Shown: positions 7,807-27,603 of the stretch, in pieces | Layout: every line of letters begins with the position of its first letter | How positions within the stretch are numbered: position 1 is the stretch's first letter | Assembly (NCBI RefSeq): GCF_003334785.1 | Contig: NZ_QOWV01000001.1 | Strand: one strand, 5' to 3' | Origin: Escherichia coli | GTDB lineage: Bacteria; Pseudomonadota; Gammaproteobacteria; Enterobacterales; Enterobacteriaceae | Length of the DNA stretch: 64,000 nt | The notes under the pieces: model-generated | Databases searched by the model: none | Seen by the model: only the letters and a program-made list of their open reading frames with translations | Told to the model about the DNA's origin: nothing | Translations under genes and position numbers: made by a program

Positions 7807-8816
7807 CGCGGCAGTTTTCCGTGGTCGCGTAGCCAGGCGGCAGTTTTCTCGATACCTTCATCCAGGGTGATGACCGGCTGATAACCTAACTCTTCCTGCG
7901 CACGCGTAATATCCAGCGTAAAGTCAAAATTCAACTTGGAGACGCCGTAGTGGGTCAGCGGCGGCTCTTTTGCTGACTTGCGGCCTAAACGCTCCATGCT
8001 GCGGGCGATCATATCCAGCATCGGGTAGGGGACGGAACGAATACGACAGTCAATATTCAACTCGTCGATCAGCTTCTGCACGATGCTGCGCAGTGTGCGA
8101 TGCTCGCCGTTGGTGATGTTGTACACACGCCCGGAAGGTAGCTTATCGCAGGCTTCCTGGCTTGCCAGCCACATTGCGTGCACGGCATTTTCATAGTAGG
8201 TCATATCGACCAGCGCACTGCCGCCATGCGGTAACAGAATACTGCCGTAGTGGTGCATCATATGCGCCAGACGGGGAATAAAGACTTTATCGTGCGGTCC
8301 GAACAGACTTTGTGGGCGCAGAATAGTAAAGCGCGTTTGTGGATTCGCCTGCGAAAGCATATTGATCACTTCTTCGCTGGCTGCTTTGCTGCGGGCAAAC
8401 TCGTTGGCGAAGCGGTGAGGGCGAAAATCTTCTTTAATATCGCGATGGTGGTGATAATCGAAGTACAGGGAGGGGGAAGAGATATGAATAAAGTTACGCA
8501 CACCCCAGGCGACAGCCCATTCACCCAGGCGGCGAGTGGCGCGAACGTTAGCCAGATCGAAAGCCTGTTGTGTCCCCCAGGGTGAGGTAAAGCTGGAGCA
8601 GTGCCACAGCGTATCAATGCCCGCGAGCATCACTTTAGCTTGTGATGAAACCAGCTCGGTCAGATCCGCCGGAACAAACTCTGCGCCCATTTTTTCCAGC
8701 AATTTGCCCATTGCCTCGTTGCGACCGGTCGCTCGCACGCTGATGCCTTTCTGGCATAAAAACTCTACCGCGTTTCGACCTAAGCCGCTGGTGGCGCCGG
8801 TAACCAGTACCTTCAT
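7803..8816 (-). CDS. ybjS: NAD-dependent epimerase/dehydratase family protein YbjS
   Basis: 337 aa from [17 protein letters not shown] (Rossmann GxxGxxG); track ORF has a 21-codon upstream extension. Confidence 0.8.
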
Positions 8817-16020: not shown

Positions 16021-16920
16021 TTACGCAGAGAAAAAGGCGATGAGGATCGGCACTAACAGGCTAAGAATAAAACCGTGAACAATTGCCGCCGGGACCATAT
16101 CCAGCCCGCCAGTACGTTGAAGAACGGGCAGGGTGAAATCCATTGATGTGGCACCGCATAAGCCCAGTGCAGTAGAGCGGCTGCGGCGAATCAGCCCAGG
16201 GATCAACATAATAGCAATCAGTTCACGGGCCAGATCATTAAAAAACGCCGCGCTCCCGATTACCGGACCAAAAGATTCGGTCAATAAAATACCGGAAAGA
16301 GAATACCAGCCGAAACCGGAGGCCATTGCCAGCGCGGTATTGATGGGGAGATCAAGAATAAAGGCGTTAATTAAACCACCAATTAATGAACTGACAACCA
16401 CCACCACGGCGACAATCATTCCCCGGCGATTAAGGACAATCTGCTTTAAGGTCATGCCATTATTGCGCAACTGAATACCAACGAGGAAAAGTAGCAAAAT
16501 TAACGTGTATTCACTGGCTTCGGTCGCGTGTTGTAAGAAAGCCAGTCCACTTAGACCAATGGCAAAACCAATCACTACTACGCCGCACAGTTTTAGCGAC
16601 TCCAGCGCCATCGCAATACGCGACGGGAGTTTTTCTTGCTGATGGTGGTTGCGCCACGGCAGGCCTCGCTCCAGCCACATCAGGGCGGCAATATTACACA
16701 GTAAAATAACGGTAATACTGACGGCAGAATAATGCAGAATCGCCAACAGGTTACTGGCGAGGTTATCGAGAAACGCCAGACTGATACCCATAAAAAAGAG
16801 AATAAGGTAAACCATCCAGCTTAATAGCTGATTAATAACTTTTAACGCAGCTTGTTGGCGAAGCGGAATGAGGTAACCCACAATCAGGGGAACCAGAATG
16901 ATTAACAGCCCAGAAAACAT
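16021..16920 (-). CDS. ybjE: L-lysine exporter LysO (YbjE)
   Basis: 299-aa polytopic membrane protein from MFSGLLIILVPL. Confidence 0.85.
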   Translation of the reverse strand: MFSGLLIILVPLIVGYLIPLRQQAALKVINQLLSWMVYLILFFMGISLAFLDNLASNLLAILHYSAVSITVILLCNIAALMWLERGLPWRNHHQQEKLPSRIAMALESLKLCGVVVIGFAIGLSGLAFLQHATEASEYTLILLLFLVGIQLRNNGMTLKQIVLNRRGMIVAVVVVVSSLIGGLINAFILDLPINTALAMASGFGWYSLSGILLTESFGPVIGSAAFFNDLARELIAIMLIPGLIRRSRSTALGLCGATSMDFTLPVLQRTGGLDMVPAAIVHGFILSLLVPILIAFFSA

Positions 16921-17094
16921 GAAAACCCAGTCCTTGCAAAGATGAAGTCGAAATGCGCGATGACACACTACTGAAAGCGGAAGGACGAGTAAAGTTGCAA
17001 TTAAAAGGAAATGTTATGCATAAGGAGCAGTAGAGTATTCGTTTTCATTTAAAGATATTCTTGCGCTTTAATTACAAACTGCACCGATGTTGGT

Positions 17095-17300
17095 GGCGTC
17101 AAAATCGCCGAGGCGTTCCCTGAAGGCCGGGGCAGCCCACATGGATGTGGGCTGAGGGCGCGTTTTACAGGGATGTTACCTCGCGCCCGACCCGGTAGCC
17201 GTAAGGGATAAGTCGAGGGCACCGCGCAGCGGCGATTTTGTTCGCCAGAGCCCGGGGGTGCAGGGGGCGGCGGCGATTGGCCGCCCCCTGCGCGCTCCTT
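17095..17300. repeat. GC-rich cluster of nested perfect and imperfect palindromes (unclassified)
   Basis: perfect 10-bp-arm inverted repeats at 17133-17154 and 17261-17290, a 7-bp-arm pair gggcgcg/cgcgccc, and an outer imperfect pair 17095-17115/17225-17246, embedded in AT-rich intergenic DNA. Confidence 0.5.
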
Positions 17301-17375
17301 GCGCCAGTGGCAATATGTTGCTTAGCTCATGAAAGGAGCGCAACAAGATGATGAATCAACATATAACAACATCTT

Positions 17376-17405
17376 AAAAAAAGGCCTGACATTACGCCAG
17401 GCCTT
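17376..17405 (-). terminator. rho-independent terminator downstream of aqpZ
   Basis: aaggcctg-loop-caggcctt stem followed by a U-run on the minus strand. Confidence 0.65.
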
Positions 17406-17414
17406 CTGCGTTAA

Positions 17415-18110
17415 TTAATCACGCTTTTCCAGCAGGGTCCGGTAAATCAGACCACCGATAATGCCGCCGACAATTGGCACCACCCAGAAGAACCACAGTT
17501 GTTCTAATGCCCAGCCGCCCTGGAAGATAGCAACCGCGGTGCTGCGCGCCGGGTTAACAGAAGTGTTAGTCACCGGAATACTAATTAAGTGAATCAGGGT
17601 TAAGGCCAGACCAATAGCGATCGGCGCAAAACCTGCCGGCGCGAATTTGTCGGTTGCGCCGTGGATCACCAACAGGAAACCTGCACTCAATACCAGTTCA
17701 ACTACCAGCGCGGAAAGCATGGAATAACCGCCTGGTGAATGCTCGCCATAACCGTTAGAAGCAAAACCGCTGGCTGCCGCGTCAAAACCCGTTTTACCAC
17801 TGGCAATTAAATACAGCAGCGCCGCTGCAACAATACCGCCGACAACCTGGGCAATTACGTAGCCAACGACTTCTTTTGCCGGAAAACGTCCGCCAGCCCA
17901 TAAACCAATAGTGACCGCCGGGTTAAAATGACCACCAGAAATATGACCAACAGCAAAGGCCATCGTCAGAACGGTCAGACCGAACGCCAACGCCACGCCG
18001 GCAAAACCAATGCCTAATTCCGGGAAGCCTGCGGCCAGTACAGCACTACCACAGCCACCAAAAACAAGCCAGAAAGTACCAAAACATTCAGCTGCTAATT
18101 TTCTGAACAT
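17415..18110 (-). CDS. aqpZ: aquaporin Z
   Basis: 231-aa MIP-family channel with two NPA motifs (GGHFNPAVT and NPARS). Confidence 0.95.
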
Positions 18111-24428: not shown

Positions 24429-24653
24429 CTATGCGACTGCCGCTTCTACTTCGACGGGCACAATAACACTGGCGTGATTGCCTTTTGGCCCCTGGTGGAC
24501 ATCAAACTGAACGGATTGTCCAGCTTTTAGCGTTCTGTAACCATCCATCTGAATGGTGGAATAATGAGCGAAAATATCTTCGCCGCCGCCTTCAGGGCAG
24601 ATGAAACCAAACCCTTTGGCATTGTTGAACCACTTAACAGTACCCTTTTCCAT
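24429..24653 (-). CDS. cspD: cold-shock-like protein CspD
   Basis: 74 aa from MEKGTVKWFNNAKGFGFI (CSD RNP motifs). Confidence 0.9.
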   Translation of the reverse strand: MEKGTVKWFNNAKGFGFICPEGGGEDIFAHYSTIQMDGYRTLKAGQSVQFDVHQGPKGNHASVIVPVEVEAAVA

Positions 24654-24975
24654 GCTTCGACATCCTTCGCAAATCTTATACAAGTAAGATGGAATAAACC
24701 GGGGTCAGAGAGGGGGCTGTTCAAAACCTCGCCAACTCTAGAAATACAATTTAGAGAATTAGGGCGAGCCGTCAAGCATTTGACAGGGGACAAGGGGCAG
24801 GTATGAATCAAAAATTTGAAGCAGTTAACGCTATTGACAGGAATGTGACAGATGTCGCTGATGCCAACGATAGATGATAGTTATCTATCATGTGGAGTAG
24901 ATTGGTCAGGCAAATAAGCTCTTGTCAGCGGCAGGGCGTTCTGCCGATAACCGTAACCGAAGATGATAACTGACA

Positions 24976-25296
24976 ATGGGTAAAACGAACGACTGGCTGG
25001 ACTTTGATCAACTGGCGGAAGAAAAAGTTCGCGACGCGCTAAAACCGCCATCTATGTATAAAGTGATATTAGTCAATGATGATTACACTCCGATGGAGTT
25101 TGTTATTGACGTGTTACAAAAATTCTTTTCTTATGATGTAGAACGTGCAACGCAATTGATGCTCGCTGTTCACTACCAGGGGAAGGCCATTTGCGGAGTC
25201 TTTACCGCCGAGGTTGCAGAAACCAAAGTGGCGATGGTGAACAAGTACGCGAGGGAGAATGAGCATCCATTGCTGTGTACGCTAGAAAAAGCCTGA
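24976..25296 (+). CDS. clpS: ClpA adaptor protein ClpS
   Basis: 106-aa ORF immediately upstream of clpA. Confidence 0.95.
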
Positions 25297-25326
25297 ATGC
25301 AGGCATAAAAATTGGGGGAGGTGCCT

Positions 25327-27603
25327 ATGCTCAATCAAGAACTGGAACTCAGTTTAAATATGGCTTTCGCCAGAGCGCGCGAGCACCGTCATGAGTTTAT
25401 GACCGTCGAGCACTTGTTACTGGCGCTGCTCAGTAACCCATCTGCCCGGGAGGCGCTGGAAGCGTGTTCTGTGGATTTGGTTGCGCTCCGTCAGGAACTG
25501 GAAGCCTTTATTGAACAAACCACACCCGTTCTGCCTGCCAGTGAAGAGGAGCGCGACACACAGCCGACGCTGAGTTTTCAGCGTGTACTGCAACGTGCGG
25601 TCTTCCATGTCCAGTCCTCCGGTCGCAATGAGGTTACCGGTGCAAACGTTCTGGTCGCTATCTTTAGCGAACAGGAGTCGCAGGCGGCATATCTGTTGCG
25701 TAAACATGAAGTCAGCCGTCTCGATGTGGTGAACTTTATCTCTCATGGCACGCGTAAAGACGAGCCGACACAGTCTTCTGATCCTGGCAGCCAGCCAAAC
25801 AGCGAAGAACAAGCTGGTGGGGAGGAACGTATGGAGAATTTCACGACGAACCTGAATCAGCTTGCGCGCGTGGGCGGAATCGACCCACTGATTGGTCGTG
25901 AGAAGGAGCTGGAGCGTGCTATTCAGGTTCTCTGCCGTCGCCGTAAAAACAACCCGCTGCTGGTGGGGGAATCTGGTGTCGGTAAAACCGCGATTGCGGA
26001 AGGTCTTGCCTGGCGAATTGTTCAGGGCGATGTGCCGGAAGTGATGGCTGACTGTACGATTTACTCTCTCGATATCGGTTCTCTGTTAGCGGGCACAAAA
26101 TATCGCGGCGACTTTGAAAAACGTTTTAAAGCGTTGCTCAAGCAGCTGGAGCAGGACACTAACAGCATCCTGTTTATTGATGAGATCCACACCATTATCG
26201 GTGCGGGTGCAGCGTCTGGTGGTCAGGTCGATGCGGCTAACCTAATCAAACCGTTGCTCTCCAGCGGTAAAATTCGTGTAATTGGTTCGACAACCTATCA
26301 GGAGTTCAGCAACATTTTCGAGAAAGACCGTGCTCTGGCGCGTCGCTTCCAGAAAATTGATATTACTGAACCGTCGATCGAAGAAACTGTTCAAATCATC
26401 AATGGCCTGAAACCGAAGTATGAAGCGCACCACGACGTGCGTTATACCGCAAAAGCGGTGCGTGCGGCGGTAGAGCTGGCGGTGAAATACATTAACGATC
26501 GTCATCTGCCGGATAAAGCCATTGATGTTATCGACGAAGCGGGCGCTCGCGCACGCCTGATGCCGGTAAGCAAACGCAAGAAAACCGTTAATGTGGCGGA
26601 TATTGAGTCCGTGGTGGCCCGTATTGCACGCATTCCAGAGAAGAGTGTTTCTCAGAGTGATCGTGATACCCTGAAAAACCTCGGCGATCGCTTGAAAATG
26701 CTGGTCTTCGGTCAGGATAAAGCCATTGAGGCGCTGACTGAAGCCATTAAGATGGCGCGTGCAGGTTTAGGTCACGAACATAAACCGGTTGGTTCGTTCC
26801 TGTTTGCCGGCCCTACCGGGGTCGGGAAAACAGAGGTGACGGTACAGCTTTCGAAAGCTTTGGGCATTGAGCTTCTGCGCTTTGATATGTCCGAGTATAT
26901 GGAACGCCATACCGTCAGCCGTCTTATTGGTGCGCCTCCGGGATACGTTGGTTTTGATCAGGGCGGTTTGCTGACTGATGCGGTCATCAAGCATCCACAT
27001 GCGGTGCTGCTGCTGGACGAAATCGAGAAAGCGCACCCGGACGTGTTCAATATTCTGTTGCAGGTGATGGATAACGGTACGCTGACCGATAACAACGGAC
27101 GCAAAGCAGACTTCCGTAACGTGGTGCTGGTGATGACCACCAACGCCGGGGTACGGGAAACTGAGCGCAAATCCATTGGTCTTATCCACCAGGATAACAG
27201 CACCGATGCGATGGAAGAGATCAAGAAGATCTTTACACCGGAATTCCGTAACCGTCTCGACAACATTATCTGGTTTGATCATCTGTCAACCGACGTGATC
27301 CATCAGGTGGTGGATAAATTCATCGTCGAGTTGCAGGTTCAGCTGGATCAGAAAGGTGTTTCTCTGGAAGTGAGCCAGGAAGCGCGTAACTGGCTGGCCG
27401 AGAAAGGTTACGACCGGGCAATGGGCGCTCGTCCGATGGCGCGTGTCATCCAGGACAACCTGAAAAAACCGCTCGCCAACGAACTGCTGTTTGGTTCGCT
27501 GGTGGACGGCGGTCAGGTCACCGTCGCGCTGGATAAAGAGAAAAATGAGCTGACTTACGGATTCCAGAGTGCACAAAAGCACAAGGCGGAAGCAGCGCAT
27601 TAA
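25327..27603 (+). CDS. clpA: ATP-dependent Clp protease ATP-binding subunit ClpA
   Basis: 758 aa; two AAA+ modules with P-loops GESGVGKT and GPTGVGKT. Confidence 0.95.

Follow-up and report, generated by a model that had tools for sequence, protein, structure and literature searches.

The G+C-rich segment between aqpZ and lysO of Escherichia coli is TRIP1a/RRS-lysO, a member of an enterobacterial repeat family with a covarying fold

The aqpZ–lysO spacer and the element within it

The window analysed here is a stretch of 64,000 nucleotides of Escherichia coli DNA, and all positions are counted from its first letter. The genes lysO (ybjE) and aqpZ both lie on the − strand, and the spacer between them spans positions 16969–17414. 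One segment of this spacer differs sharply from its surroundings: G+C content is 68% over 17088–17309 versus 34% and 40% in the flanks (exact spans), and an along-sequence profile gives 0.63–0.72 within the segment versus 0.35–0.41 on either side. The original prediction, a G+C-rich nest of palindromes in an AT-rich spacer, is borne out by these values. The extent that it gave, 17095–17300, captures the segment but is too narrow, as the published Replication Risk Sequence (RRS, see below) covers 17088–17309 and the homology among related copies runs from ~17072 to ~17372. The parts of the element and the neighbouring features are as follows.

16021–16920, − strand: lysO (ybjE) coding sequence, for context; annotated 299-aa start, ATG at 16920
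~17072–~17372, + strand: whole family homology, TTACAAAC ... CAACATATAAC, defined by aligning copies from further loci and genera; exceeds both the published RRS and TRIP1a
17088–17309, + strand: RRS-lysO, core of TRIP1a; 222 bp, 68% G+C, 168–389 bp upstream of the lysO ATG (PMC11194060)
17100–17240, + strand: core domain closed by outer stem P1; TwoAYGGAY match below threshold; helices 1–2 covary
17100–17115 with 17225–17240, + strand: arms of outer stem P1; 16 nt, 88% complementary, with a tandem A.G/G.A mismatch
17115–17132 and 17240–17257, + strand: imperfect 18-nt direct repeats, 125 bp apart, flanking the 125-bp segment that is lost in deletion alleles
17133–17154, + strand: hairpin 1, with CAUGGAUG at its tip; perfect 10-bp arms CAGCCCACAT (17133–17142) and ATGTGGGCTG (17145–17154)
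17156–17188, + strand: hairpin 2; stem GGGCGCG (17156–17162) / CGCGCCC (17182–17188) and an inner UAC/GUA stem
17167–17176, + strand: loop of hairpin 2, ACAGGGAUGU, outside the search pattern
17254–17273, + strand: published G-quadruplex sequence GGGGGTGCAGGGGGCGGCGG, exact match; overlaps the 5′ arm of hairpin 3
17260–17291, + strand: hairpin 3; perfect 12-bp G+C-rich stem GCAGGGGGCGGC (17260–17271) / GCCGCCCCCTGC (17280–17291), 8-nt loop
17292–17341, + strand: hairpin 4, in which GCGCUCCUU pairs with AAGGAGCGC; the subtype-B equivalent is CGUUCAC/GUGAACG
17381–17405, − strand: aqpZ intrinsic terminator hairpin, outside the element; AAGGCCTG ... CAGGCCTT, then a T run on the − strand
17415–17417, − strand: aqpZ stop codon, for context (ORF list and annotation)

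All palindromes of the original prediction are present at, or within 1–2 bases of, the positions that it gave. The second of them is indeed a perfect repeat, but its arms are 12 bp long rather than 10 bp. Furthermore, a perfect 9-bp pair that was absent from that list, GCGCTCCTT/AAGGAGCGC, lies at 17292–17300 and 17333–17341. Hairpin 3 is followed by no U or T run on either strand, and no terminator-like site was found there. The ORF list contains no ORF of at least 60 aa inside the segment, as had been predicted, the longest being 57, 56 and 37 aa. A small ORF beside the hairpins, MMNQHITTS (17348–17377), has a good Shine-Dalgarno sequence, and we rejected it as a candidate gene since Klebsiella and subtype-B copies lack its start codons.

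The single-strand fold of the 279-nt element has an energy of −143.8 kcal/mol on the + strand and −131.3 kcal/mol on the − strand, versus shuffle means of −117 and −105 kcal/mol (z = −5.3 and −5.4). The element is thus ~26 kcal/mol more stable than its dinucleotide shuffles on either strand, and 0 of 200 shuffles folded as well. Because the folding z is about −5.3 and the pairs covary across 82 relatives (see below), the structure exceeds what is expected by chance.

The segment is 100% identical to the corresponding segment of K-12 strains C600 and TUM22768 (BLAST). The published RRS-lysO span, 168–389 bp upstream of lysO, translates to 17088–17309, exactly 222 bp, and a search for mismatches between this span and the RRS-lysO of MG1655 found none. 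The published G-quadruplex (G4) 20-mer occurs verbatim at 17254–17273, on the + strand only. The locus thus agrees with the published element in sequence, position, 222-bp extent, G4 20-mer and placement of the G-rich strand on the lagging-strand template, and we found no difference. It is essentially certain that the aqpZ–lysO segment is TRIP1a, which is the same as RRS-lysO and is already known and experimentally characterised.

The K-12 repeats TRIP1a, b and c were first catalogued by Rudd in 1999, as reported by Li et al. (2024, Genes 15:236, PMC10888264). In K-12, TRIP1a lies 31 bp past the aqpZ terminator, TRIP1b lies near putP and misses an internal 125 bp, and TRIP1c lies near yohI, now dusC; TRIP1d (alx-sstT) and TRIP1e (copA-ybaP) occur in other strains, but not in all (PMC10888264). 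Pham, Wood, Dunbar, Cox and Goodman described TRIP1 repeats as the 222-bp 'Replication Risk Sequences' RRS-lysO and RRS-dusC (NAR 2024, PMC11194060), in a series that also comprises Pham et al. NAR 2023 (PMC10287960) and a 2026 preprint (PMC13308219). The element catalogued in 1999 as TRIP1 has been a characterised functional RRS since 2023, one that programs gaps behind the fork where the Ter domain begins and ends. Consistent with TRIP1a, b and c, K-12 records match the whole element at three places and the inner 125 bp at two, and we found the second full-length copy between yohP and dusC. K-12 thus has two full-length copies (lysO and dusC) and an internally deleted third near putP.

The segment had originally been labelled unexplained, a label that the published record removes. 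A repetitive element was among the explanations proposed then; the repeat family is confirmed, but its name is TRIP1/RRS and not BoxC/RSA. It had also been foreseen that copies elsewhere in the genome would make the segment part of a known repeat family, and BLAST found such copies.

Copies, sites and alleles of the family

A BLAST search of 17080–17320 against 5426 complete E. coli genomes found the element in every one of them, at a median of 3 places per genome (range 1–10), and the inner 133 bp as sole query gave the same picture. In PLSDB, which includes some chromosomes labelled as plasmids, copies of 83–86% identity are present at unrelated intergenic sites of Klebsiella pneumoniae, K. 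aerogenes and K. variicola, with 13 places in one K. pneumoniae chromosome, and Citrobacter freundii has a partial match of 76% identity. The family is thus not limited to two positionally conserved copies, but occupies up to 10 places in E. coli and 13 in K. pneumoniae. The phage collection contains no match to the element and therefore gives no sign of a phage origin.

To extend the family, GTDB species genomes were scanned with the exact pattern AGGCCGGG-N8-CATGGATG-N7-AGGG, which has 20 specified bases and for which we estimate ~0.5 chance matches. The scan returned 96 stretches, all but two of which are true relatives, the exceptions being a coding-region match (L104) and an apparently unrelated stretch (L034). 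The relatives belong to Escherichia (coli, albertii, whittamii), Klebsiella, Enterobacter, Citrobacter, Leclercia, Silvania, Atlantibacter, Kluyvera and Pseudocitrobacter, and none is from Salmonella among the matches listed (80 of the 96 stretches). Copies on three contigs labelled Desulfacinum, Sporobacter and Bacillus are of Klebsiella or E. coli type and probably represent contamination. The family occupies dozens of unrelated intergenic sites in eight genera.

The copies fall into two subtypes that differ in the 3′ half. Subtype A (...GGAGCGCAA) comprises E. coli TRIP1a, c and d and the copies of Klebsiella, Kluyvera and Pseudocitrobacter, while subtype B (...GTGAACGGAA) comprises those of Enterobacter, Citrobacter, Leclercia and Silvania and some E. 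coli copies, and is usually followed by a CCCCTCACCC...CCCTCTCCC repeat. An exact Chi site is present in 0 of 82 copies, and at the left end the near-Chi sequence GTTGGTGG is inexact in every copy. Compared with the published descriptions of RRS/TRIP1, the present survey adds more copies, sites and genera, the two 3′ subtypes, a strong G4 motif in subtype A only, and natural inverted alleles.

In particular, other E. coli lineages (loci L005 and L001) carry an inverted allele at aqpZ–lysO, in which a ~276-bp block is ~94% identical to the window. Short filler on both sides of this block can barely be aligned, and the lysO-proximal 125 bp is almost identical, with one mismatch. Inversion at this site has been reported on a large scale, TRIP1a being scored as 'forward' in 3448 and as 'reverse' in 1255 of 4703 genomes (PMC10888264). 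Internal-deletion alleles also occur at aqpZ–lysO (L001 and L004), and L001 is without the 125-bp segment.

The distribution of copies bears on an alternative reading, in which TRIP1 would be mainly a selfish or neutral repeat of the REP, ERIC and BoxC kind that spreads and is exchanged among spacers by recombination, with gaps as a side effect of its stable structure and not as a function selected in the host. The copy numbers in E. coli and K. pneumoniae fit this reading, as do the presence of TRIP1d and TRIP1e in some strains and their absence from others, the internal deletions of L001, L004 and TRIP1b, and the occurrence of both orientations at one locus. REP-like repeats surround the copies of K. 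pneumoniae, including a tandem pair, spaced 437 bp apart, in strain 176. Placement relative to genes also fits: by heuristic ORF calls, and with copies that are not all independent, the 59 copies with both neighbours called lie in 33 convergent, 24 tandem (13 sense, 11 antisense) and 2 divergent spacers, a preference for the 3′ ends of genes. REP/BIME, ERIC (IRU) and BoxC elements share with TRIP1 that they are dispersed, structured, G+C-rich, intergenic, mostly at gene 3′ ends, variable among strains and often adjacent to one another. TRIP1 differs from them in being a longer element of ~300 bp, in having only 1–10 copies in E. coli and in its complex multi-hairpin fold with conserved loops. 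REP-like and BoxC-like sequences adjoin the element, but none lies inside it, and its sequence appears unrelated to the consensus sequences of REP, ERIC and BoxC.

Against a selfish repeat, we found no transposase partner, no terminal inverted repeats and no target-site duplication. A MITE-like remnant, which the original prediction had offered as one explanation, is not supported. The two ends, TTACAAAC... and ...CAACATATAAC, do not form an inverted repeat, and comparison of filled and empty sites at alx-sstT (TRIP1d versus the K-12 and SE15 alleles) shows an exchange of the entire spacer without a target-site duplication. Taking these points together with those of the following sections, we regard the reading as a primarily selfish or neutral repeat as somewhat unlikely.

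The conserved fold and its resemblance to TwoAYGGAY

We aligned 82 non-redundant copies with MAFFT, without the use of structure, and derived a consensus fold with RNAalifold. The consensus groups 53 pairs into 11 helices. The outer stem P1 is long and the inner stem short, hairpins 1 and 2 are direct neighbours, the 3′ half of P1 bears a small hairpin, and the G+C-rich hairpin 3 and hairpin 4 complete the fold. Standard pairs occupy 98.8% of cells, versus 36–43% in controls with slid partners; both-side changes occur in 30 of the 53 pairs, versus 5–10; 594 cells are changed on both sides, versus 21–82; and the covariation score is 0.396, versus at most 0.078. On four of five measures, 0 of 500 column shuffles reached the observed value. 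The strength of the covariation relative to these controls indicates that the fold is under selection. This multi-hairpin fold, covarying across eight genera, appears to be new relative to the literature searched.

Individual helices contribute to this signal. Compensatory changes affect 6 of 8 pairs in hairpin 1 (helix 5 of the consensus), the loop of which was preset by the search pattern and is also found in the BLAST-found copies, and 6 of 8 pairs in hairpin 3 (helix 10). The inner pair of hairpin 2 covaries (AU in 51 copies, GC in 30), and hairpin 4 has 3 pairs changed on both sides (helix 11). The hairpins covary in both subtypes, including hairpin 3, which overlaps the G4. Covariation and invariant loops across genera speak for selection on the fold and, to that extent, against a purely selfish or neutral repeat, although such a fold could serve the element's own propagation.

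The consensus also identifies the folded strand. Cells with G.U(T) outnumber cells with A.C by 55 to 9, or by 217 to 9 when an invariant U.G helix is counted as well, and this excess points to the G-rich + strand as the strand that folds. The excess fits a folded lagging-strand DNA template, in which G.T is tolerated, and an RNA of the same sense equally well.

In an Rfam search of the region, the sole notable match is TwoAYGGAY (RF01731) at 17099–17238 on the + strand, with 30.6 bits and E = 0.014, below the gathering score of 43. The resemblance is architectural: in TwoAYGGAY as in the RRS core, the closing stem P1 is long, P2 is short, and two neighbouring hairpins bear A-N-GGA-Y loops. In the window, loop 1 is AUGGAU, loop 2 is AGGGAU, and P1 has 16 pairs including the tandem A.G/G.A mismatch. 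Of the 82 relatives, 81 have CA(N)GGA(Y)G as loop 2, and 13 have CAUGGAYG. The known members of TwoAYGGAY (Weinberg et al. 2010) come from the gut metagenome, Clostridia and Psychromonas, whereas the RRS core is enterobacterial, scores below threshold and has AGGGAU as loop 2 here. Ten loci with family copies gave no RF01731 match at the gathering threshold, but only the unrelated PyrD leader, RyhB, SECIS and tRNA-Sec; six loci with other copies gave no Rfam match at E ≤ 0.1; and a sensitive Rfam scan of the Leclercia copy L080, which has two AUGGAU loops, gave no TwoAYGGAY match, but only RsmW at 13 bits. We therefore treat the likeness of the core to TwoAYGGAY as a lead and not as a classification, and homology as no more than a possibility.

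This lead suggests a second alternative, in which the function is carried by RNA transcribed from the G-rich strand, with the two CANGGAYG loops and further GGA motifs binding a CsrA dimer, as a small sponge or as a cis element within transcripts of the neighbouring genes. TwoAYGGAY RNAs have been proposed to bind CsrA (Gardner and Eldai 2015, PMC4333381). RF01731 belongs to Rfam clan CL00106, the same clan as RsmW, and shares its architecture with the RRS core. Both loops fit the CsrA/RsmE consensus, (A/U)CANGGANG(U/A). Loop 2 is kept in 81 of the 82 copies, an insertion variant carries two more GGA-loop hairpins, and the G.U excess selects this strand as the folded one.

Other observations do not fit an RNA. 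The Rfam match is below the gathering score and does not recur in other copies, and the G.U excess is equally expected of folded single-stranded DNA with G.T pairs. The Csr/Rsm sponge sRNAs of clan CL00106 have their own promoter and a Rho-independent terminator, whereas neither was found for the RRS element: a scan of 16900–17450 for a sigma-70-like promoter or an intrinsic terminator found none, inspection by eye of the upstream flanks of the copies revealed no consistent −10 or −35 box, and the edges of homology of the Klebsiella copies have no conserved promoter-like flank. Orientation is random relative to the genes in tandem spacers. In E. coli CsrA CLIP-seq tables, which are gene-based and may drop reads from repeats, aqpZ has no entry, ybjE and dusC are marked 'No'/NS, and genome coordinates looked up in them gave unrelated numbers only, which is weak evidence against CsrA binding. 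On this balance, we consider a function carried by RNA to be very unlikely.

The same data bear on the proposal of a structured 5′ leader for lysO (ybjE), made in the original prediction, and on a riboswitch through which lysine or arginine would regulate this gene. The position of the element, 168–389 bp upstream of the lysO start codon, is the one point in favour of this proposal. The covariance search that had been suggested as a check returned the sub-threshold TwoAYGGAY-like match on the + strand, but no lysine riboswitch or other leader family on the lysO (−) strand at E values up to 10. In addition, the folded strand, as judged by G.U over A.C, is opposite to lysO; inverted alleles retain the 125 bp nearest lysO with a single mismatch; the same element is present at dusC, at alx-sstT and at many unrelated loci; and deletion of RRS-lysO by Pham et al. 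gave no reported growth defect (PMC11194060). We accordingly give a lysO leader almost no credence.

Replication gaps, the G-quadruplex motif and orientation

The experimental record for RRS concerns replication. RecA and SSB bound to single-stranded DNA form peaks on the lagging strand beside each RRS, tapering over ~2 kb (Pham et al., PMC10287960, PMC11194060), and the RecA and SSB ssGap-seq peaks at lysO and dusC are lost on deletion of the RRS (PMC10287960). Ectopic insertions of RRS create new peaks (PMC11194060), while inverted RRS copies give no detectable peak (Pham et al. RRS papers). DNA polymerases I, II and IV are blocked at the G4 (PMC11194060), and gap formation is directly visible in single-molecule work (PMC13308219). 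At least one RRS copy is conditionally essential (PMC11194060), with double deletion possible only together with a compensating 200-kb amplification (Pham et al. RRS papers), and deletion or inversion of an RRS alters supercoiling genome-wide (PMC11194060). The conditionally essential copy and the effect of deletion on supercoiling also count against a primarily selfish or neutral repeat.

The window is consistent with the published geometry. Over its 64 kb, the + strand has a GC skew of +0.031, a measure of composition only, which makes the strand that carries the G4 the compositional leading strand and hence the lagging-strand template, as published. The best explanation for the segment is thus that it is TRIP1a/RRS-lysO and that it acts as a structured, G-rich lagging-strand template that blocks the polymerase and leaves a gap, a reading that we hold to be very probably correct. 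As the fork unwinds RRS-lysO, the G-rich + strand, which is the lagging-strand template, folds into a stable structure in the published mechanism; this structure comprises the G-quadruplex at 17254–17273 and, as predicted by the present analysis, the conserved set of hairpins. The lagging-strand polymerase halts at this structure and re-primes downstream, and a post-replication gap of up to ~2 kb remains, loaded with SSB and RecA. On this reading, the element has no role for lysO or aqpZ and simply occupies their spacer. The gap-forming property rests on three experimental papers; as to purpose, the discoverers hypothesize that transient gaps relieve topological strain, like valves, where the Ter macrodomain meets its neighbours.

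Pham et al. cite the pilE G4 of Neisseria gonorrhoeae as the sole analogue in bacteria. Both are G-quadruplexes on a defined strand that perturb replication, with a gap or nick used by RecA. The pilE G4 is short (16 nt), needs an sRNA promoter and serves antigenic variation, whereas the RRS is a multi-hairpin element of 222–300 bp with a proposed topological role.

The G4 motif itself is distributed unevenly within the family. The canonical G4 pattern (four runs of at least 3 G, with loops of 1–7 nt) is absent even from the K-12 element, and G4Hunter scoring was therefore used. For RRS-lysO the score is 2.30 (sense strand) and −1.35 (antisense strand). Subtype A has a median score of 2.30, 26 of its 29 copies scoring at least 2.0, and subtype B a median of 1.25, which does not exceed the 1.40 of composition-matched shuffles. 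The restriction of the strong G4 motif to subtype A appears, in the literature searched, to be a new observation. Function may be determined by the conserved fold and not by the G4; if this were confirmed, the mechanistic focus would shift from the G4 to the fold.

A more specific version of this idea is that selection maintains the TwoAYGGAY-like multi-hairpin fold with its two invariant CANGGAYG loops, that a partner specific for sequence and structure reads these loops, and that the G4 of E. coli and Klebsiella is a later addition that strengthens the block. The candidate partner could be CsrA, acting on RNA if the element is transcribed, or else a protein that binds hairpins in single-stranded DNA. 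We consider this version distinctly unlikely as it stands, but if it were true, a loop-reading fold would tie an orphan RNA motif to a DNA element that programs replication gaps.

The orientation of the element relative to replication is not conserved. In strain EC21Z-147, the G-rich strand of the lysO copy lies on the strand with a skew of −0.030 over 50 kb, and is thus the leading-strand template. In strain A13, the sole full-length copy, at dusC, has its G-rich strand on a strand with a skew of −0.027, likewise the leading-strand template. Some natural strains thus carry the orientation that gives no detectable gaps when engineered, and confirmation would put the claim of conserved position and orientation in question. 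The comparative results, namely the covarying fold, the subfamily-limited G4, the inconsistent orientation, the many copies and the TwoAYGGAY-like core, do not appear in the literature searched, and they bear on how RRS works. The subtype-limited G4, the variable orientation, the many copies and the REP-like placement relative to genes fit less easily with the published model, and they keep alive the view of the element as a selfish structured repeat. It is also favoured by the lack of orientation bias relative to local GC skew: in a crude test with short flanks, covering 75 loci for which 4 kb or more of flank was available, the skew of the sense strand is positive at 34 and negative at 41, and it is zero at one further locus.

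Deletion and insertion within the structured core

In the window, the TwoAYGGAY-like core of the element is bracketed by two imperfect direct repeats. In several other copies of the family, the outer stem of the core (P1) contains an additional block.

Window 17115-17132 and 17240-17257: imperfect 18-nt direct repeats, 125 bp apart, flanking the TwoAYGGAY-like core
L082 ~8600-8700: additional ~95-nt block in the 3′ half of P1, likewise present in L046, L048, L049 and L079

In L001 (3040-3060), an allele of the lysO locus, exactly the block bracketed by the 18-nt direct repeats is gone, and a deletion of the same size is reported for TRIP1b, the K-12 copy near putP (Li et al. 2024, PMC10888264). 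Together, the two losses suggest that slippage or recombination has occurred repeatedly across this structured core. The deletion in L004, of ~80 bp, differs from that in L001. The ~95-nt block, carried by E. whittamii, Silvania, Enterobacter sichuanensis and Leclercia copies, adds two GGA-loop hairpins to P1, CAAAATTGC-CGGGA-GCAATTTTG and GGCCC-AGGGAT-GGGCC.

Reversed and tandem copies

By GC skew, two natural E. coli alleles lie in reversed replication orientation, and one K. pneumoniae chromosome carries the element in tandem.

L108 ~25040-25340: natural allele of E. coli EC21Z-147, G-rich (G4) strand on the negative-GC-skew strand over 50 kb
L109 ~24530-24830: natural allele of E. coli A13, G-rich (G4) strand on the negative-GC-skew strand over 50 kb
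L006 1565-1871 and 2002-2308: near-identical tandem pair of K. pneumoniae strain 176, 437 bp apart

As read from the negative GC skew, the G-rich strand of both E. coli alleles is the leading-strand template, and the A13 allele is the sole full-length copy in its strain. In engineered strains with the G4 strand as the leading-strand template, no gap was detected (Pham et al.).

The near identity of the L006 pair, each copy of which is adjoined by a REP-like GCCGGGTGGCGGCTGCGCCTTACCCGGCCTAC, suggests a recent local duplication; the strain 176 chromosome holds the element at 13 places overall. Klebsiella- or E. coli-type copies also occur on three contigs (L026, L054 and L074) whose assemblies bear the names Desulfacinum sp. 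MAG, Sporobacter termitidis MAG and Bacillus sp.; enterobacterial DNA has most likely contaminated these assemblies.

Ends and neighbours of the element

Window 17088-17098: near-Chi left end, GTTGGTGG (GCTGGCGG at the equivalent Klebsiella position)
Window 17334-17377, + strand: 9-codon ORF MMNQHITTS* with a good Shine-Dalgarno sequence, AAGGAG, at 8-nt spacing
L106 330-480: CCCCTCACCCTAACCCTCTCCCC...GGGGCGAGGGG repeat in the K-12 alx-sstT spacer

Both versions of the left end match the Chi site GCTGGTGG with one mismatch, and the exact site is present in 0 of 82 aligned copies on either strand. At the right end, the 3′ arm of hairpin 4 supplies the Shine-Dalgarno sequence of the small ORF. 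We discarded this ORF, which is probably not a gene, because its start codons are missing from Klebsiella and subtype-B copies. The CCCCTCACCCTAACCCTCTCCCC...GGGGCGAGGGG repeat, which presumably is BoxC-like, occupies in K-12 the spacer that holds TRIP1d in other strains. In Enterobacter, Leclercia and Silvania, as judged from the flanks of the alignment, it lies immediately 3′ of most copies of subtype B.
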